Shown here piece after piece: positions 13,128-23,389 of a stretch of 43,275 bases of DNA (positions are counted from its first letter, which is position 1; the number at the start of each line of letters is the position of its first letter). The notes under the pieces were generated by a model. The model saw only the letters and a list, made by a program, of their open reading frames with translations, was not told where the DNA came from and made no database searches. The DNA comes from an uncultured Bacilli bacterium (lineage in GTDB: Bacteria > Bacillota_I > Bacilli_A > RF39 > UBA660). A program made the translations under genes and the position numbers. The stretch spans positions 1 to 43,275 of the forward strand of contig CALVUY010000003.1 in assembly GCA_944363705.1 (NCBI GenBank). The letters run 5' to 3'.

Positions 13128-16100
13128 CTAAAATAAACTTAACTGATTAGAATCAGGTAATTCGTTAAGGATTCCCATCTCTGACATCTTATCAGTTAGA
13201 GTCTTTGACACTTTACCACGTTTTTGTAAATCTTCTTTACTTAGGAAAGGTCCCTTTTCTCTAGCTTCCACGATGGTTTTTGCAACGGTTTCTCCTAGTC
13301 CATCGATAGTTTTAAATGGTGGTATTAAAGTATTTTCATGTTCAGTATCAACAACAAATCTTGTCGCATCACTTTTCTCTAAAGAAATAGGGGCAAATTT
13401 AATTCCACGTGCAGTTGCTTCTAGGGCAACATGAAGGGAATCTATGATATTAGACTCTTTATTAGTAACTTCGAAGCCTTTAGCCATTAAATCTTCATAT
13501 CTAGTTTTAATAGCATTATAACCTTTTATCATAGTCTCGATATCATAATCATCTACTCTAATTGAGAAGAAGGCTGCATAGTAGAATAATGGTTTATAGA
13601 CTTTAAACCAAGCGATTCTAATGGCACTCATAACATAGGCACAAGCATGGGCTTTTGGGAACATGTATTTTATTTTATGACATGACTCTATATACCATTC
13701 TGGAACGTTAGCAGCTTTCATTTCTTCGACCATACCTTTCCATGTTTCAGGGTCTTTAGTCGCCTTACCTTTTCTAACATGCTCCATTATTTTAAAGGCT
13801 CTAATAGGTTTCATGCCCCAGTTCATTAAGTTAACCATGATATCATCACGACAACCTATAACGTCTTTAAAAGGTACAATATTATTTCTAATTAATTCAC
13901 TAGCATTTCCTGCCCAAACATCAGTACCGTGTGATAGTCCTGATATTTTAACAAGCTCAGCGAAAGTACTTGGTTTTGTCTCAACTAACATTTGAATAAC
14001 AAAACGAGTTCCAAGCTCAGGTAGTCCTAATGTTCCAGTAGGACATAAGATATCCTCTTCTGTTACTCCTAAGGCTTCAGGACTAGAAAGAATTGAGAAT
14101 ATCTTTTTATCATCCATTGGTAGTGTTGTAATATCTATACCTGATAAGTCTTGTAACATTCTTAAAACTGTAGGATCATCGTGACCTAGTATATCTAGTT
14201 TTAAAACGTCTTGGTCAATGGCATGGTAATCAAAGTGAGTTGTTCGCCAAAGCGATGTATTATCATCGGCAGGATACTGGAATGGTGTAAAATCAAAGAC
14301 ATCCATGTATCCTGGTATTACAACGATACCTCCAGGGTGTTGTCCTGTTGTTCTTTTAACACCAGTACATCCTTTGGCAAGACGTTCAATCTCAGTACTT
14401 CTTTTACCAACAATTCCATGTTCTTCAAAGTAACCTCTAACATAACCGTAAGCAGTTTTTTCTGCTACTGTACCGATTGTTCCTGCTCTATAAACATTAT
14501 CAACTCCGAATAGTACTTTAGTATATTCATGAGCTTTCCATTGATATTCTCCTGAGAAGTTAAGGTCGATATCGGGAACTTTATCGGCATTGAAACCTAA
14601 GAAGGTTGCAAATGGCATATCTTGTCCTTCTTTACCTAGAGGCTCGCCACATTTAGGGCAAGTCTTATCTGGCAAGTCATAACCTGATGGATAATCTTTT
14701 CCATAAGGTATTCCCTCTTCATTAATAAATTCTGAGTACTTACAGTCTTTATTACGACATAGATAGTGGGCTGGAAGAGGATTTACTTCAGTTATTCCCA
14801 TCATTGTTGCCACGAAAGATGAACCAACAGAACCACGGGAACCAACGATATAACCATCATCATTAGAATGTTTAACTAACTTTTGAGCGATTAGGTAAAT
14901 AACATCGAAACCTCCACCTATTACACCACCTAAGTTCTTTTTAAGAGTTTTCTCTAAGTCTTCATCTGTTATATCAGGATCAGTTATTTTAAGATTTTCT
15001 TTTATTACTTTCTTTACTTCATCAAAGCCTTTTAAAAGAGTATTATGTAAATTAAAGAATAATTTCTTCTTAAACTCATCTTCACTTAGATTAGCCTCTT
15101 CTCTTTTTAATTTAGCTTCTACGGCTTTAAAAACTCCATCTCCATATAACTCTGTACTAATTCTCTCTTCAATATTATAAGGAAGTGGTTCTCCATACAT
15201 ATCACTTGCTTTTGTAAAGACTAAGTCAGTAACTGTTTCTACACTTTTATCAATTTTAGGAGAGAAAGGTATTCCTCCTGTTTCAATAATAACTTCTATA
15301 ATTTCTGTCATATCAGCGATTTTATTAGGATTATCTATAACTATTAGTTTTCTTGTTTCTTCATCTAAGAATGAGAAGTCTTCTAACATCTCTGTTGTTG
15401 TTCTAAAGTGATTAGATGGAATATTTTTAATACCCCCTCTTGCTAGAGGATGACGTCCTCCTCCTGGTACTTTTTGATTAACAATGATTTCTCTATATAT
15501 TTTATCTTCTCTTGTTAGGTGATGAACATCTCCTGTTGCAACAATTAACTTACCAGCATCAATAGTTGTATTAATGATTTTATTGATATTACTAATTACT
15601 TCTCCCTCATTGGCAAAGTCACCTGTTTCTACTAAGTGAGAATAACATTCAGGTGGTTGTACTTCAACATAGTCATAGAATCTAATGATATTAGATAGTT
15701 CTTCTTCACTCTTACTAGTCGCTTGTTTAAAGACTTCACTTTCATAACAACCACTACCAATTAAAAGCCCTTCTCTATATTCATTAATAACACTTCTTGG
15801 GATTCTTGGAGTCTTATATAGATAGGTTGTATTGGCAAAAGATACTATTTTAAATAGATTCTTTAGTCCTTTTTTATTTAGAGCGATGATATTGATATGA
15901 TTAGTATTACCATATTTATACATCTCTTTAGAATCTACTATATTTGAAAGTTGTTCCATTGTCTCTATATTTCTACTATCTAGTTTCTCTAACATTTTGT
16001 ATAGGACTAATGCAGTACCTTCAGCATCGTAATCTCCTCTATGATGGCTCTCTTCATCCCATGGAACATTATATCTTTTAACTAAGGCAGATAGACCATG

Positions 16101-17741
16101 ACGGGCATAGTTATTATCTAGGGTTCTTGATAGTTCTAGGGTATCGATAACAGGATTCTTAAACTCACCTAGATTATATTTTTTATAAGCCATCTCTAAG
16201 AAAGAAACATCGAACTTAGCATTATGAGCGACCATAGGTAAGTCACCAAACCACTCTATAAACCTTTTAACAGCATTTTCTTCATTATCTTTATCTTCTA
16301 GCATTAAATCTGTTATATTAGTTATTTCTGTTATTTTAGCAGGTAAAGGTCTTCCTGGATTAATTAGTTCATCATAACGTTCTAATATCTCTCCACCTTT
16401 CATCTTAACTGCACCAATTTCAATAATAGAGTCAGCACCACCGGCATTAAAACCAGTTGTTTCAAAGTCAAAAACAACATAAGTTTGGTCTAATAGTTTA
16501 CCATCATTAGGTCTAATAACGATATCTACATTATCATCTACCATAACAAGTTCTGTTCCATATAAGGCTTTAAACTTATCTTTTTCTTCTTTACCTTTAT
16601 TATAATCTCTTACTAAGTTATAAACATGAGGGAAAGCTTGAACACCATTATGGTCTGTAATTGCAATTGCTTTATGTCCCCATTTCATCGCTTGTTTTAC
16701 TAGTTTTACTTCATCTGCTACTCCATCCATCTGACTCATCATCGTATGAGCATGTAGTTCTACTCTTTTTTCTTCTGCATCATCAGTAATTTCTTCTTCC
16801 TCATGCTCTACTGGCATAATATCTCTAGCATTAAGTACTAACTCATCTTTAGAAAAATTATCTATTTTCGTATATCCTCTAATCTTAAGCCATGTACCTA
16901 CTTTTAAAGCTTTACAAAGTCTAGCATACTCTTCATCTTCATTACAAAATACTTTACAAGCGATACTATCTGTTTCATCTGTTATTTTTAAAGTAATAAT
17001 CTTAAAATTAGTCTTACTAGACTCAAAATAATCAGTACCAAAGATATATCCTTCTACTGTTACATCATTATCTTCTCCTAATAATAAACTCATCTTAATA
17101 GGATCACTATCTATAGTCTTACCTAGAATACATCCTTCATCAGTACTTTTTCTTCTTCTAGGAGTTCCACTATTATTATAACGTTTAGGTTCTTCTTTAA
17201 TAACATCCCTCTTAATAGGTTCAGGAATAGTAACATTAGATAATTCATTACTTATCTCTTCTTCTATTAAATTATCTTCTCTTAAAATAATAGGTATATA
17301 GTCATGAAAGCCTATATTATGATAGAAATTATTTATATCATTACTTATTTCTTTTAGTCTATCTTCTTCTTTTTTATTATAAGCGATAAGTCTTAGAGTA
17401 TCACTTTCATAAACTAGTGAATCTTTATAAACATCTATTAGTTTTATTTTATCTTTAGATTTTAAGATATCTAAAAAGTAAGGATAATAATCTAGTAGCA
17501 TATTATTATCAGGGTTTCTAACTGTAAAGTTATAGGTTAAATCATCTGAAAATAAAGACTTATTCTCTACTAAATTAGATAATATGTCTTTAGGTAAATA
17601 TTTATCAATAGTTATTTTAACTAAAAAACTTTTATTATTTTTATTAATTACTATTTTATCTAAGGTTGAACTTTTAAAAAAGTCAAAGTACTCACTATTT
17701 AAATTAATCTTTTTCAAAAATAAATTTAGTTTACTATCCAT
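13128..17741 (-). CDS. polC: DNA polymerase III PolC
   Basis: OB fold, PHP (ELHAHT.MS.MDG, AITDH), DEDDh exonuclease (VFDFETTG), GSRGSVGSS, KVPDIDLNFSG, KLDILGH and a C-terminal QLSLF clamp motif. Confidence 0.99.
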   Translation of the reverse strand: MDSKLNLFLKKINLNSEYFDFFKSSTLDKIVINKNNKSFLVKITIDKYLPKDILSNLVENKSLFSDDLTYNFTVRNPDNNMLLDYYPYFLDILKSKDKIKLIDVYKDSLVYESDTLRLIAYNKKEEDRLKEISNDINNFYHNIGFHDYIPIILREDNLIEEEISNELSNVTIPEPIKRDVIKEEPKRYNNSGTPRRRKSTDEGCILGKTIDSDPIKMSLLLGEDNDVTVEGYIFGTDYFESSKTNFKIITLKITDETDSIACKVFCNEDEEYARLCKALKVGTWLKIRGYTKIDNFSKDELVLNARDIMPVEHEEEEITDDAEEKRVELHAHTMMSQMDGVADEVKLVKQAMKWGHKAIAITDHNGVQAFPHVYNLVRDYNKGKEEKDKFKALYGTELVMVDDNVDIVIRPNDGKLLDQTYVVFDFETTGFNAGGADSIIEIGAVKMKGGEILERYDELINPGRPLPAKITEITNITDLMLEDKDNEENAVKRFIEWFGDLPMVAHNAKFDVSFLEMAYKKYNLGEFKNPVIDTLELSRTLDNNYARHGLSALVKRYNVPWDEESHHRGDYDAEGTALVLYKMLEKLDSRNIETMEQLSNIVDSKEMYKYGNTNHINIIALNKKGLKNLFKIVSFANTTYLYKTPRIPRSVINEYREGLLIGSGCYESEVFKQATSKSEEELSNIIRFYDYVEVQPPECYSHLVETGDFANEGEVISNINKIINTTIDAGKLIVATGDVHHLTREDKIYREIIVNQKVPGGGRHPLARGGIKNIPSNHFRTTTEMLEDFSFLDEETRKLIVIDNPNKIADMTEIIEVIIETGGIPFSPKIDKSVETVTDLVFTKASDMYGEPLPYNIEERISTELYGDGVFKAVEAKLKREEANLSEDEFKKKLFFNLHNTLLKGFDEVKKVIKENLKITDPDITDEDLEKTLKKNLGGVIGGGFDVIYLIAQKLVKHSNDDGYIVGSRGSVGSSFVATMMGITEVNPLPAHYLCRNKDCKYSEFINEEGIPYGKDYPSGYDLPDKTCPKCGEPLGKEGQDMPFATFLGFNADKVPDIDLNFSGEYQWKAHEYTKVLFGVDNVYRAGTIGTVAEKTAYGYVRGYFEEHGIVGKRSTEIERLAKGCTGVKRTTGQHPGGIVVIPGYMDVFDFTPFQYPADDNTSLWRTTHFDYHAIDQDVLKLDILGHDDPTVLRMLQDLSGIDITTLPMDDKKIFSILSSPEALGVTEEDILCPTGTLGLPELGTRFVIQMLVETKPSTFAELVKISGLSHGTDVWAGNASELIRNNIVPFKDVIGCRDDIMVNLMNWGMKPIRAFKIMEHVRKGKATKDPETWKGMVEEMKAANVPEWYIESCHKIKYMFPKAHACAYVMSAIRIAWFKVYKPLFYYAAFFSIRVDDYDIETMIKGYNAIKTRYEDLMAKGFEVTNKESNIIDSLHVALEATARGIKFAPISLEKSDATRFVVDTEHENTLIPPFKTIDGLGETVAKTIVEAREKGPFLSKEDLQKRGKVSKTLTDKMSEMGILNELPDSNQLSLF

Positions 17742-17755
17742 ACCGCACCACTATC

Positions 17756-18595
17756 CTATATTATTTCTAATTCTTTAATCTTTAATATATGTTTTTGATT
17801 CTTAATACAAAAGTTAATAAAAGTCTTTAAATCAACAGTTGCTAATCCTCTTTCAAAAGTATATTTATCTAGTTCAAAGATAATCTTATCTTCCATCATT
17901 CTATTTAATATCTCTTCTTTAGAATATCCTAAGTACATAAGAAAGTAAGGATATAGTTGTCTTTTAAGATATTTTAGAGAACTATCTCCTCTTAAATAAA
18001 CACTTTTATTTAATGTTCTTGATGTTAGTTCATTATCAATAGCAAGTTCTATGATAGCATCTACTATATCTTTATATTCGCTCTTGTATGTTGCTAGTTC
18101 TTTTCTTACAATATGTTCAATGATATTGATAATGGCAAGAGTATAATTATCACTATCTTTCCTATTACCCCAAGTAATAGTATTTACTCTTCTACTCTTA
18201 GGTATTTTCATTCCTATAACATCTAATTTTTTATCAACAACTAAAACATGATATAGTTTAATATCAAATCTAAGTATATCTTTTAAGTTTTTATTTAAGT
18301 CTTTTTTTATTTTATCCCAAGTATGTAATAATTCTAGGCGATATTTTTCAGTATCTTCTCTTATTTCTTTATATATATCACTAGCTTTTACCATATCAAA
18401 GATAGTATCATCATCTGGTATATAGTTTTTAGGATCTTTTAAAATATGTTCTTCTTCTTTATATAAATCGTTATAACTATGACGATAGTTTTTCCACAAC
18501 TTCTGTTTAAAACCTTGGATATTAGAAGAAATAGAGGCACCAAATAAAAGATTCCATATTAAAACGTAATCATTTAAGACGAAGTTTAAATTCAT
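17756..18595 (-). CDS. Hypothetical protein, probably co-transcribed with polC
   Basis: 279-aa ORF with an AAGGGGG RBS, ending 14 bp before the polC start. Confidence 0.8.
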   Translation of the reverse strand: MNLNFVLNDYVLIWNLLFGASISSNIQGFKQKLWKNYRHSYNDLYKEEEHILKDPKNYIPDDDTIFDMVKASDIYKEIREDTEKYRLELLHTWDKIKKDLNKNLKDILRFDIKLYHVLVVDKKLDVIGMKIPKSRRVNTITWGNRKDSDNYTLAIINIIEHIVRKELATYKSEYKDIVDAIIELAIDNELTSRTLNKSVYLRGDSSLKYLKRQLYPYFLMYLGYSKEEILNRMMEDKIIFELDKYTFERGLATVDLKTFINFCIKNQKHILKIKELEII

Positions 18596-18699: not shown

Positions 18700-20547
18700 T
18701 TAACTTGCTAGTTCAATTTGAAATGGATTTTGTAAGGTTCCGTCACCTGATGATATTATGATATTTGACTTTAGATTAAAGGTAGGTTTGATTGCATGAG
18801 AAGCCCAAACTCCTACATTAGCAGAAACTCCTATATCACCAGTTGCTATTGCATATGTTGAATTATATGGGTTTAATAGCCAAAAGTAACTATTATTTTC
18901 ATATTTATCAAATTGTCCTGACATTAACTCACCTAATCTTAATAAACCTACTTTTGCAATGGTATTTGTTGTTGTGTTCGTCATATCTATATCTGTATAT
19001 TTTGCAAGTTTATATGAAGAACCGCTACCTACAGTTCCTAAATACCAAATAGTATTATCTTCTACCATATTATTATAAGTATCCCCTAGGTAATTTGTTA
19101 AAAATTCTCCATTTAGAAATCTTCCTACAGTATTAGTATTTGAAAAAATATTATTACTTCCAAAAGTCGTGGTGAGAAAATCTCCGGAATTTTTCAATGG
19201 TTCGGCACTGGTTATTTTGGTTAATCCTTCAGTTTCATGACTTACTATTCGATATAAATTATTTTCATCATTTCCAAAACTTATATATTCTCCACTGTAT
19301 CTCGTATTTAATTTTGTTCCTGATAAATTAGTGTCATTGTCTCCCTCTAATCTGTATGGATTTTCTTTTGTTCCATTACCACTCGCGATTTTTACACTAG
19401 ACTTTAAAACTACAGAAGGTCGTATTCCATTATTGCCATAATAATTACCATTAGTTGGGCTACCATTTCTGTAAATATATTGTATAGATGACGAAGACGG
19501 TGTTAAAGTCCACCATGAAAGGCCATTATTTAAATAGCCATTACTTAATGATGTTCCTCTATAACTTGTTTGATATTCATACATATTAAGTAAACCTACT
19601 GCAGATGTAGTTATCGTTCCTTCATTTGAAGGTCTTGTTATATTTCCTATATTTGTGTCATTTTCTGTAGCATTCCATTTTGCATCCATTACTATAAACT
19701 TATCTGGTTCTCTTAAATTATATAAAAAGCCATCTACTGAGGTATCATTTAACCACCCTTCCATATAACTACCTTCAAAGGCACTGCTATCATTATCATA
19801 AGAAATTGCACTTATATTCCATTGTGTTACTAACTTTACCGTCTTCTCTTCATTATTAACAAGCACCGCTCTCCATAACTTTCCTGAATACCAAATATAG
19901 TTATCAGGTTCCTCTCCCGTTATAAATGTATCCGTTCCATCATCATAAAGATTCTCTTCTGGTATATTTTCAAGTAATACAGTTGATATACTCTTATCTC
20001 TTTCTTGACTTACCTCTACTCTTAACTTACCACTAAATACTTGTCCTGAATAGTTTCCATCCACCTCATCTGTTATCCATAAACTTAAACTATATTCATT
20101 TGTACTTTTACCTTCTATTGTTCCAGAGTCTAGTATTCTATTAGGATTTGAACCAATTCGTGTAAGTAGTGTCGCTCCACTGTCACTACCATTTTTATTT
20201 AGATTGTATTTTAAATACTTATCATCTATTCTAGTATCAGTTTCTTCTATAGTATTATCATCTAAATAAATTGTGTAATCTACCGATTTACTACCATTAT
20301 TTATTAGTTTGAAAGTTGAACCATCTAACGATAGTCCCTCACTATCACTTATACCTATGGCATTATCTATACTTATTCCCTCACTTGTTTCATCTAATAC
20401 TAACTCTAATTCTCCTACTTTGACTATCCCTTCTGTTCCATTTAACTCTGTAGTAAAATAAGCATAACTTATTAGTATTGTAAGTATTAATACTATAAAT
20501 ATACTTATAATTATTACTGTTGCTTTCTTATTTTTCTTTTTCTCCAT
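18700..20547 (-). CDS. Surface protein with a SipW/TasA-like N-terminal domain and two tandem DUF6273-like (lectin-fold-like) domains
   Basis: TM/signal ending SYAYFT...VGELEL. Two internal repeats: WRAV/YRIV, VGLL/VGLL, WWTLTP/FWLLNP, GIRP..LKS...SGNGT..NPY / AIKP..LKS...SGDGT..NPF. Family names come from motif recall. Confidence 0.75.
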   Translation of the reverse strand: MEKKKNKKATVIIISIFIVLILTILISYAYFTTELNGTEGIVKVGELELVLDETSEGISIDNAIGISDSEGLSLDGSTFKLINNGSKSVDYTIYLDDNTIEETDTRIDDKYLKYNLNKNGSDSGATLLTRIGSNPNRILDSGTIEGKSTNEYSLSLWITDEVDGNYSGQVFSGKLRVEVSQERDKSISTVLLENIPEENLYDDGTDTFITGEEPDNYIWYSGKLWRAVLVNNEEKTVKLVTQWNISAISYDNDSSAFEGSYMEGWLNDTSVDGFLYNLREPDKFIVMDAKWNATENDTNIGNITRPSNEGTITTSAVGLLNMYEYQTSYRGTSLSNGYLNNGLSWWTLTPSSSSIQYIYRNGSPTNGNYYGNNGIRPSVVLKSSVKIASGNGTKENPYRLEGDNDTNLSGTKLNTRYSGEYISFGNDENNLYRIVSHETEGLTKITSAEPLKNSGDFLTTTFGSNNIFSNTNTVGRFLNGEFLTNYLGDTYNNMVEDNTIWYLGTVGSGSSYKLAKYTDIDMTNTTTNTIAKVGLLRLGELMSGQFDKYENNSYFWLLNPYNSTYAIATGDIGVSANVGVWASHAIKPTFNLKSNIIISSGDGTLQNPFQIELAS

Positions 20548-20577
20548 AAATATCTTACTCCTTCCATTATTACACGT

Positions 20578-20611
20578 AAAAAAGAATAGAATAATCTCTT
20601 ACTCTATTCTT
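20578..20611 (-). terminator. Intrinsic terminator/attenuator in the 5' leader of the 615-aa gene
   Basis: AAGAATAGAGTAA-GAGA-TTATTCTATTCTT: 13-bp stem with one G:U, a GNRA loop, and a U6 run. Confidence 0.8.
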
Positions 20612-20638
20612 CTTACACTATGAAAGAAAGTAATTTTA

Positions 20639-20734
20639 TTACTTAATCTGCAAGTAAACTGCCCCCCCCCCGTTAACAAGTTGTAAACGGGCGCTAGTTT
20701 TTGTAGATGTAGATTGACGAATTATTTTATCCAT
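20639..20734 (-). CDS. Unannotated 31-aa leader peptide containing a G10 tract (MDKIIRQSTSTKTSARLQLVNGGGAVYLQIK)
   Basis: ATG at 20734 after an AAAGAAGGT RBS, downstream of a sigA-type promoter. TAA at 20639-20641. Confidence 0.7.
   Translation of the reverse strand: MDKIIRQSTSTKTSARLQLVNGGGAVYLQIK
20662..20671 (-). repeat. G10 homopolymer (C10 on the plus strand), a slippage-prone simple sequence repeat
   Basis: Directly visible, and the longest G/C run I saw in this AT-rich window. Confidence 0.95.
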
Positions 20735-20767
20735 AATCAAAACCTTCTTTCTATTTTTGTTATACTA

Positions 20768-20797
20768 ATTTTAACACAAACATTAATTAATTTACAA
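20768..20797 (-). promoter_or_regulatory. sigA-type promoter driving the leader
   Basis: TTGTAA-N18-TAAAAT with a TGn extension on the minus strand. Confidence 0.7.
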
Positions 20798-20808
20798 GTA
20801 CTATCATT

Positions 20809-22083
20809 TTATGGTCTTAATGCTGTTATAGGAACAATATATATACCAGTCTCTTTATCTTTTACAACAGATGTAAAATTTCCTGTTATTATACACATGA
20901 ATTTAGGTTTAGTTATCATGTTATCATAAAATTTTAGTAAATCTTTTTTTGCAGTTTCAATAGCATTATATCCTAGTTTTATTTCGACCGCTGCATAATC
21001 GCCATTAGAAAACTCTAAAATAGAATCAACTTCTAAACCTGTTACATTGTCTCTAAAATGATATAAGTGTCCACCTAAATATTCTATATATATTCTAAGG
21101 TCCCTTTCTACTAACGATTCAAATAGAAAACCAAATGTTTTTAAGTCTTTAAGAAGTTTATCAGCATTCATATTCAAAGAGGCACAAGCAAGTGATGGAT
21201 CTGTTAAATGTCTTTTAGGAGATTTACCAATTCTCTCTTTAGAACGATAATTCTCACTATAGGCTTCTTGATTTTCTATTATATGTAATCTATCTAGTAC
21301 ATCTAAATAGTCTTTTAAAGTTATTCTACTTTCAATTAATTCAGACTCATTTTCATAATTCTTTATATCTTTTATAAGTGTTTCATTACTAACAACAGTA
21401 GATTCATTTCTTGATAATGATTTAAGTAACATTCTCATTTTATTTTTGTCTCTTTTTTTATCATCATTCATATCTTTATCAAGAATAGATTCTATATAAC
21501 TTTTAGGTATTAATCCTACTTTGTCAGCATCTACTTTTATATTACTTGGCCAGCCACCTCTTACTATTAGATTAGCAAGTTCCTTTAGAGAAGGTATTTT
21601 AACATTAATATTTTTCTGATTATCTTCTAGCATTGCTGTTAGGGAGGCATCTCCAGTAGAATCTCCTGATTCATAAAGTGACATAGTATACATTTTTATT
21701 TTACCAATTCTACCTGCTCCCAAATGGAATACTTCTTTTTTTCTCTCATCATTTAATTCTGTTGAGCATGTTAATATATATTTACCTTTTTTAGAATCTT
21801 CATCACATTTTCTTCTTACTTTATCCCATATTTTAGGTACTAAGTGCCATTCATCTATTAATTCTGGCTGTTCTTCATTTAATATTAATTCTAAATCAAG
21901 TAATGCTCTTTCTTTTGTTTCATCATCATCAAGATAGACAGCACTTTTAGCATGCTTAGAAGATGTCCATGTTTTTCCACACCATTTAGGTCCTTCAACA
22001 GATAAGGCTCCAAAAACTTTTAAATAGTCATCTAAGTTTTTATCAATTAATCGTGGCATATATTCATCATTATTAAAGTTCAT
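20809..22083 (-). CDS. AAA+ ATPase with DUF4143 and a C-terminal PD-(D/E)XK-like domain
   Basis: Walker A GPKWCGKT, Walker B LIDE, GGWP, DPSLA, G.LFE and EVD...VEIK. Start moved to ATG 22083 (GAGGTG RBS). Confidence 0.88.
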   Translation of the reverse strand: MNFNNDEYMPRLIDKNLDDYLKVFGALSVEGPKWCGKTWTSSKHAKSAVYLDDDETKERALLDLELILNEEQPELIDEWHLVPKIWDKVRRKCDEDSKKGKYILTCSTELNDERKKEVFHLGAGRIGKIKMYTMSLYESGDSTGDASLTAMLEDNQKNINVKIPSLKELANLIVRGGWPSNIKVDADKVGLIPKSYIESILDKDMNDDKKRDKNKMRMLLKSLSRNESTVVSNETLIKDIKNYENESELIESRITLKDYLDVLDRLHIIENQEAYSENYRSKERIGKSPKRHLTDPSLACASLNMNADKLLKDLKTFGFLFESLVERDLRIYIEYLGGHLYHFRDNVTGLEVDSILEFSNGDYAAVEIKLGYNAIETAKKDLLKFYDNMITKPKFMCIITGNFTSVVKDKETGIYIVPITALRP

Positions 22084-22198
22084 AAAGAAATCACCTCTAT
22101 ATAGAGATGATAACATATTTTTATAGTTTATTCAATATTTGATATACATTTTTTAAGGAATTTGATATATAAATTTTAAGACTTTTGTTATGCAATTT

Positions 22199-23389
<1,191 letters not shown>

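Follow-up and report, generated by a model that had tools for sequence, protein, structure and literature searches.

The 43,275-nucleotide (nt) stretch analyzed here, referred to below as the window, is from contig CALVUY010000003.1 of an uncultured Bacilli bacterium whose assembled genome comprises 1,460,389 bases in 112 contigs with a G+C content of 27%; the stretch is present in sequencing runs from chicken gut metagenomes. We examined the region just ahead of the minus-strand gene starting at 20547, which encodes a protein of 615 amino acids (aa). This region holds a promoter-like site, a short leader open reading frame (ORF) containing a run of ten G residues, and a hairpin followed by a U run; the first-pass annotation of the window had read it as an attenuator in which the length of the G tract decides how far a ribosome travels along the leader. 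From the results below we consider it probable that the region belongs to a family of phase-variation cassettes that is spread through the genus and controls hypervariable surface proteins.

The poly-G leader and its family

The features of the region, in the order in which they are met on the minus strand, are as follows.

20768-20797, minus strand: promoter-like site, with a -35 element TTGTAA at 20797-20792, an 18-nt spacer and a TG-extended -10 element TGTTAAAAT at 20776-20768 (TAAAAT at 20773-20768)
20743-20748, minus strand: Shine-Dalgarno (SD) sequence of the leader, AGAAGG, 8 nt ahead of the ATG at 20734
20639-20734, minus strand: leader ORF in the assembled G10 form, 31 codons ending at TAA 20641-20639, OFF frame
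20672-20688, minus strand: conserved pre-tract motif, GTTTACAACTTGTTAAC in the window; the family version ends GTTACCT
20662-20671, minus strand: G10 homopolymer inside the leader ORF, the candidate slippage site
20632-20661, minus strand: 30-nt post-tract segment, open solely in the frame that reaches the hairpin, with stops in the other two
20620-20633, minus strand: U/C-rich box (ACTTTCTTTCAT at 20631-20620), the 5' strand of a basal helix pairing with the gene's SD
20582-20611, minus strand: terminator-like hairpin from the fold, with its 5' arm at 20611-20599, a GAGA loop at 20598-20595 and its 3' arm at 20594-20582
20599-20601, minus strand: TAA stop of the G9/G12 (ON) frame, the final three bases of the hairpin 5' arm
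20578-20583, minus strand: U6 run 3' of the hairpin stem
20555-20567, minus strand: 3' strand of the basal helix from the fold, including the gene's SD GGAAGGAG at 20565-20558
18700-20547, minus strand: the putatively controlled gene, ATG at 20547; its 615-aa product, a member of a mosaic paralog family, begins with a basic and hydrophobic segment and has a DUF6273 domain

When the minus strand was read and folded, the positions that the first-pass annotation gave for the promoter, ribosome-binding site, ATG, G10 tract, hairpin, U6 run and gene start all held, and its three frame stops were exact to the base. In the assembled G10 form the leader ends 27 nt ahead of the stem; in the G11/G8 frame the stop is the TAA at 20645-20643; and the G9/G12 frame reads on to ...QFTCRLSNKITFFHSVRRIE and ends within the 5' arm. 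The earlier call of OFF for the assembled allele also stands, G10 being in one of the two OFF frames. The promoter-like site scored 9 of 12 plus the TG in a promoter scan, and among family copies a TGnTA..T element lay about 42 to 45 nt (range 35 to 56) 5' of the leader ATG in 39 of 40 regular-expression matches drawn from 61 copies.

Long runs of G or C are a property of these leaders in this genome; runs of at least eight numbered nine, relative to 0.30 expected, and all nine lay inside a leader cassette. A search of the genome with nhmmer returned 13 copies with box and hairpin, three left halves cut off in the tract by the end of a contig, and a further weak match. Because some copies lie at contig ends, and one contig end shares 77 identical bases with the start of another contig, we give the number of loci as about 13. 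A loose regular-expression scan of the genome was too noisy for use. The aligned copies have in common the pre-tract motif and the tract, then a middle segment of modular make-up, the box, the hairpin and T run, and finally the gene's SD and start. The first-pass suggestion that the same layout might stand before paralogous genes was borne out by these loci and, once loci fetched from related genomes were included, by 100 distinct complete copies.

The tract motif occurred in 12 of 41 genomes searched, namely the window's genome, 11 of 24 congeners and none of 16 genomes from other families; the reversed pattern, run as a control, gave no match in any of the 41. Within the genus, 29 of 53 genomes had the pattern of box, hairpin and T run, one of them (G019) in as many as 28 copies. 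A search of 147 genomes representing 85 other genera of the order, together with three congeners, found it in none. From genomes poor in, or lacking, the exact motif 14 loci were inspected; each had a run of 7 to 11 G, broken up at two of the loci, after a motif variant that keeps GTTACC or GTTAACC adjoining the run. Among metagenome contigs a locus-specific pattern gave no matches and the general motif gave five, four of them real copies and one (L213) a match by chance.

Frames were counted in distinct copies with full flanks, 105 in all, drawn from this genome together with the fetched loci; box, hairpin and T run were all present in 100 of them. The leader possessed SD and ATG in the usual frame in 94 of these 100 copies, in another frame in five, and was broken in one; the start context GAAAGAAGGTAAAAAT-ATG was conserved among family copies. 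The continuing frame, in which the box is read as ACT TTC TTT CAT, was open from the tract into a stop in the hairpin in 99 of the 100, and this stop lay 3 nt past the first base of the basal arm in 55 copies and 8 nt past it in 42. The other two frames ended upstream of the stem and no closer to it than 24 nt in 98 of the 100, the nearer of them at a median distance of 30 nt. The earlier idea that one frame always ends in the stem is thus nearly exact for the family. Between tract and box, 70 of 71 distinct segments were free of stops in the continuing frame, as against one of 71 in each of the other frames; when the 71 segments were shuffled 2000 times, the number free of stops averaged 24.8 and never exceeded 42. 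Such an asymmetry among the three frames is hard to explain unless ribosomes read those frames. By assembled tract length, 19 copies were set ON and 80 OFF. In this genome the copies on contigs C11 (G8) and C9 (G5) were ON and those on C3, C4, C25, C30 and C44 were OFF; three more (C65, C2:18111 and C15) carry a stop ahead of the tract.

Tract length varied from 5 to 13 among 115 distinct copies, with G9 in 56, G10 in 19, G8 in 13, G7 and G6 in 9 each, G11 in 4, G13 in 3, and G12 and G5 in one each. Near-identical alleles, defined by at most three differences per 50-nt flank, formed five clusters, three of which differed in tract length. Four of seven near-identical pairs differed in length, their flanks differing at 1.1% of sites; examples are G9 and G11 with no differences in 100 flanking positions, and G6 and G9. 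The tract does vary in length from one genome to another. In contigs of runs X1, X2 and X4, which are from three other samples, position 20671 is T on the minus strand, giving T plus G9 with the frame unchanged; a substitution at that position has lengthened the window tract by one G, in the same frame. Loss of mismatch repair as a cause of length variation was dropped, because MutS occurs in every one of 25 congeners and the genome studied here has MutL. The assembly, which is 90% complete, gave no match to MutS domain V (MutL present; C15:3237-3590), and since all 25 congeners have MutS its absence here is probably an assembly gap. The tract as a promoter spacer was also dropped, because in the aligned copies, inspected by eye, no -35/-10 pair brackets the tract at usable spacing.

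The 231-nt leader of the window folded better than 200 of 200 shuffled sequences (z -3.18). In the fold, 20611-20599 pairs with 20594-20582 to form the hairpin. The partner of the box strand (20633-20620) is 20567-20555, so that the box ahead of the hairpin also pairs with the gene's SD, a feature overlooked in the first-pass annotation. The weak promoter that it had suggested near 20566-20574 lies inside this box:SD helix, and the promoter scan listed no site there. The whole window stem is at -25.3 kcal/mol and the hairpin at about -18 kcal/mol, including pairs between A residues and the U run; a narrower stretch folded in other copies gave -2.4 to -13.5 kcal/mol, and two copies with insertions gave about -21 and -22 kcal/mol. 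Counts anchored on the 3' arm had the eight basal pairs standard in 99 of 100 distinct sequences; one of these pairs was U-A in 67, C-G in 25, U.G in 7 and C-A in 1. The T run was 4 to 8 long in the family, and 5 or 6 long in 89 of 100. The frequent G.U pairs fit a structure formed by the minus-strand RNA.

RNAalifold applied to a MAFFT alignment of 79 copies returned no pairs, because subfamilies were misaligned in the 5' arm, and it was replaced by the anchored counts and by a covariance model. The model, built from 12 ungapped copies with a structure that we specified, matched 75 sequences, 68 of them distinct. In the fitted alignment 96.2% of cells could pair, relative to 57 to 74% with slid partners, and the covariation score was 0.294 compared with 0.186 in shuffles, none of 500 shuffles reaching 0.294; a fitted alignment is biased towards the structure of its model. 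In the hairpin helix two-sided changes occurred at 7 of 11 pairs, some of which may be register shifts between subfamilies. The box:SD helix was 94.9% paired across the 68 distinct sequences, again relative to 57 to 74% with slid partners, and box:SD pairing was part of the minimum free energy structure of 59 of 79 copies. Rfam 15 had no family at gathering score in the whole window; the best match within 20480-20830 was SSRC34, with 24 bits relative to a gathering score of 64 (E 0.29). In metatranscriptome run X18, where DNA carry-over and paralogs are possible sources, contigs covered 20298-20646 (gene start, hairpin and box) and none extended beyond 20692. One of them, of 123 nt, spans 20485-20607 with one difference, and another, subject to the same two possibilities, is a paralogous leader with its tract.

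Proposed switch and alternative explanations

We propose that the promoter drives a short leader ORF containing the G tract, and that slipped-strand mispairing at replication would alter the length of the tract and, with it, the frame in which the ribosome leaves it. Two of the frames would reach stops within about 5 to 20 nt, and the ribosome would be off the RNA at least 24 nt before the hairpin. Without a ribosome the long stem would form, its top serving as an intrinsic terminator (hairpin plus U run) and its base holding the gene's SD paired with the box; in this OFF state transcription would end, and any read-through RNA would be poorly translated. In the third frame the ribosome would cross the U/C box and stop 3 or 8 nt into the 5' arm; by analogy with the pil1 pilus locus of Streptococcus gallolyticus, considered below, both helices would be kept open, RNA polymerase would read through and the SD would be free. 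At the window locus G10 would then be an OFF setting, and G9 or G12 an ON setting. From this layout we infer that the tract slips in living populations, that transcription terminates at the U run and that translation of the leader affects the outcome. Every prediction that could be tested in silico came out in favor of the phase-switch interpretation, and the pil1 features are all present at the level of sequence.

Several observations weigh against this interpretation or limit its reach. Promoter-like matches overall were at the level of chance, with 48 found and 48.3 expected in shuffles. The stem is AU-rich, and a simple terminator scan based on G+C content did not list the window stem. Because only two alignment cells of the box:SD helix had two-sided changes, the argument for that helix is its conserved pairing potential. 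Related copies are not independent, and the family counts overstate the number of independent events. The window tract had no listed indels in run contigs, and the sole bridging contig (X4, covering 20333-20860) was gap-free and of the same length; these run data are assembled contigs, many of them short or from paralogs, and assembly drops rare variants. Metagenome assemblies can also miscall homopolymer length. Since mismatch repair is present, slippage rates need not be extreme. In 21 of 100 copies an extra promoter-like site and palindrome, described below, mean that the leader switch may not be the sole control. Finally, transcription and translation are weakly coupled in some Bacilli; the SD-masking helix would work even without coupling.

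Variation of a non-heritable kind, in which polymerase or ribosome slips on the G run so that a fixed fraction reaches the hairpin and tract length is a set-point tuning expression, appears unlikely to us. Long homopolymers can cause transcriptional slippage and frameshifting, and the frame architecture would serve this explanation equally well; the known cases of transcriptional slippage, however, are mostly on A/U runs, and the tract differs between near-identical alleles and between copies, as slippage at the level of DNA predicts. We hold it about equally unlikely that the G tract is an RNA binding site, whether for a small RNA (sRNA), a protein or an element in cis, whose length regulates while the leader ORF is incidental. 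A variable G-repeat leader targeted by a C/U-rich sRNA loop is described in the portion of the literature cited here (PMC8295292), and every copy has a C/U-rich box 20 to 60 nt 3' of the tract. Yet when the window leader was folded with G5 through G13, both helices were unchanged and the expected number of pairs between G tract and box was 0.0, and a binding site leaves unexplained both the leader with SD and ATG (99 of 100) and the openness of one frame (70 of 71 vs 1 of 71). A static attenuator or relic, with leader and terminator real, the tract stable in practice and the gene low or otherwise regulated, strikes us as very improbable. The equal length in the one bridging contig, which is from another sample, and the mismatch repair genes fit such stability, as do copies locked by a pre-tract stop (the three listed above) or by short or interrupted runs. 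On the other side, runs of 8 to 10 G have been kept in 88 of 115 distinct copies despite a G+C content of 27% and occur nowhere else in the genome, alleles with 0 or 1 flank differences per 100 nt differ by 1 to 3 G, and both settings, ON and OFF, occur.

The remaining alternative is that motif and G tract are mainly a recombination site, at which paralogs exchange cassettes or a mobile element attaches, with the variation arising by recombination instead of slippage. At three loci (C2:1-135, C43:1-180 and C83:1-140) the tract is followed by a small hairpin and then by a repeat of about 110 bp that interrupts the leader unit, and an inverted copy of the repeat starts two other contigs, C18 (1-77) and C48 (1-70), where it joins the middle segment, box, hairpin and gene. 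In congener G044 a G run, hairpin and repeat lie about 60 nt after a tRNA-Thr gene, and in G019 a 164-aa ORF inward of the repeat has a weak match, below the cut-off (E 0.0066), to an integrase N-terminal domain. On the 3' side of the tract 150 bases are identical between the window locus and L034, the leaders on the 5' side differ between the two, and the downstream proteins are mosaic. Against this, the repeat was found in 4 of 53 genomes of the genus and the leader unit in 29 of 53, and recombination leaves unexplained the frame rules and the hairpin and SD design. We judge recombination as the main cause to be scarcely probable; as a second layer it has real support and could coexist with the slippage that we favor.

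The repeat itself has three 12-nt boxes (two direct and one inverted) around a terminator-like hairpin, and no fetched copy, L050, L187 and L188 included, lay farther than about 1 kb from the end of its contig. The complete circular genome of congener G041 has two tract motifs and no copy of the repeat. A tblastn search with the 164-aa ORF of L050 gave no match in this genome, and the repeat pattern gave none in the viral contigs searched. We think that the repeat is probably an integrative element landing at sites consisting of the G run and CAGTTT; an element of this kind does not explain the frame rules. A 26-nt insert right after the tract was seen at C11:16528-16553, C15:26084-26109, C30:2703-2728 (approximate) and L049. 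It equals the start of the small hairpin fused to the last bases of the repeat, the continuing frame is open across it, in two registers, and it may be a footprint of the repeat-bearing element. Extending the phase-switch interpretation, we offer as a tentative and rather doubtful suggestion that a self-contained copy-and-paste cassette has spread to up to 28 genes of one hypervariable, lectin-like surface family in a 1.5-Mb genome, giving combinatorial variation of the surface in which each gene is heritably switched on its own, and that the G tract may double as an integrase-linked landing site. If this were true, slippage and site-specific recombination would be layered at one G-tract site.

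Relation to known systems

At the pil1 and pil3 loci of S. gallolyticus a surface-structure operon is preceded by a leader ORF containing GCAGA repeats and, after it, a terminator; in the portion of the report cited here, pil1 expression is low if the leader stops at least 28 nt upstream of the stem and high if it stops inside the stem or near it (PMC3894217). The window region resembles pil1, as described there, in having a promoter-like site, a leader ORF with ribosome-binding site and ATG that holds a simple repeat, a terminator-like stem-loop and a frame-dependent stop position. A leader ORF with its own ribosome-binding site stands between promoter and gene in the window, and in 99 of 100 copies; a repeat unit that is not a multiple of three lies inside it (G10 here, G5 to G13 in the family); a stem-loop lies between leader and gene (hairpin 20611-20582 with U6); and the stops fall either far from the stem or within it, in the window 27 nt upstream or at the last three bases of the 5' arm. 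The conserved strand within the leader ORF that pairs with the SD, as in SD-sequestering systems, is present as well, its support being conservation. As far as the cited portion describes pil1, the differences are that the repeat here is a G homopolymer and not GCAGA units, that one frame of three would be ON here whereas both out-of-frame lengths are high in pil1, and that the cassette here is multi-copy (about 13 loci, and up to 28 in a congener) whereas there are two loci there. In addition, the stem here has a base that would mask the SD of the gene, both OFF frames are rich in stops, and the system is known from sequence alone.

In trp-type attenuation the position of the ribosome on a leader ORF likewise decides whether a terminator forms, a mechanism also discussed in that report (PMC3894217). 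Unlike the trp type, the leader here neither senses charged tRNA nor has an alternative antiterminator hairpin, and its input would be a heritable change of frame. In erm and cat translational attenuation a drug-stalled ribosome on a leader ORF opens an SD-masking helix; a leader ribosome would open the SD mask here also, but the trigger would be the frame set by the tract and not stalling by a drug. In Helicobacter pylori a variable leader G homopolymer sets the expression of tlpB, a surface-related gene, through pairing with the sRNA RepG (PMC8295292). That system, in the account cited, is without a leader ORF, whereas here the features of the ORF are conserved and the folds have no pairing of G tract and box.

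Poly-A promoter switches are found among the surface lipoprotein systems of Mycoplasma. Another variable surface lipoprotein system of that genus, Vpma, operates with the Xer1 recombinase, according to the cited portion of its report (PMC2268961). The likeness to Mycoplasma lies in a small, AT-rich, host-associated and Bacilli-related genome with large, independently switched families of variable surface proteins; the difference is that site-specific inversion, or repeats in promoter spacers or coding sequences, act there, none of them known to use a leader ORF with a terminator. In Bifidobacterium breve pilus expression depends on replication slippage at poly-G, in the portion of the report cited (PMC9187656). 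On that account B. breve is like the present case in having a G-tract slippage switch for a surface structure in a gut commensal. The B. breve tract is said to lie inside the pilus gene cluster and not in a leader ORF before a terminator.

A search of full-text literature for a homopolymer version of the leader-peptide switch, with supplements and subscription journals outside its scope, returned only the S. gallolyticus report (PMC3894217) as a leader-peptide case. In the literature searched, repeat-driven leader attenuation thus comprises one studied case, two pilus loci of one streptococcus. The present case would combine the pil1-type logic with a homopolymer and a translational lock, in cassettes on dozens of genes per genome, in a lineage for which metagenomes are the only source. 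If our interpretation is correct, it describes a general route to contingency loci that does not frameshift the protein itself, poultry gut commensals would run large phase-variable surface repertoires, and the cassette would be a compact, portable stochastic switch of about 230 nt whose rules can be read from its letters. For annotation, contig breaks and 'intergenic' poly-G in such metagenome-assembled genomes should be regarded as marks of regulatory cassettes.

Putatively controlled genes and neighbors

The ORFs downstream of the cassettes in this genome encode proteins of 465 to 617 aa, most of which have at the N-terminus a run of basic residues, a hydrophobic segment and the conserved motif S-Y-A-x-F, with A29 and F31 invariant across 46 sequences. 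These two invariant residues are reminiscent of signal peptides of the SipW type (TasA-like); an NCBIfam scan (E up to 0.1) matched no model for a SipW-type signal. The window protein had 66% identity to that of C11 over the first 250 residues and 56 to 58% to those of C48, C30 and C18 over the last 430, and the proteins are mosaic in their N- and C-terminal parts. The only Pfam domain was DUF6273, present in three of the seven proteins scanned. In models DUF6273 resembles the C-type lectin fold, according to the cited portion of a published study (PMC10743442). Database relatives of the window protein numbered at least 3214 at E up to 0.001, and none of 120 among the matches listed had a functional name. 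A profile of the protein family found no chain among PDB sequences.

The interval from terminator to gene holds a promoter-like site and a 12-2-12 palindrome in 21 of 100 distinct copies, the window copy not among them. This second promoter-like site has TTGATA, a spacer of 17 nt and TAATTT with TG (for example in L018, L032, L041, L044, L052, L062, L069, L071, L148 and L150); the palindrome is perfect and overlaps that promoter in L018, L032, L069 and L148 and is degenerate in the other copies examined. The palindrome is operator-like, and these 21 copies may have a second control of the repressor type.

The copy at C9:23793-23923 (also L068 and L123) is the G5 copy set ON, with the pre-tract motif read in another frame. 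It precedes a different gene, of 465 aa, starting MEPKEKYEQ and lacking a hydrophobic segment at the N-terminus; cassettes are therefore found ahead of more than one gene family. A tandem array on contig C23 of G019 (L019-L022) has four genes about 2 kb apart (2030, 6374, 8374 and 10371), with one switch each. At some loci (e.g. C25, L013, L045 and L070) the leader SD comes directly after the stop of an upstream paralog, without a promoter. In the window the ORFs at 17756-18595 and 22199-23062 gave no family match. The cassette of the window has an AAA_14/DUF4143 ATPase gene just upstream (20809-22116), and the gene for PolC lies two genes downstream (13128-17741).

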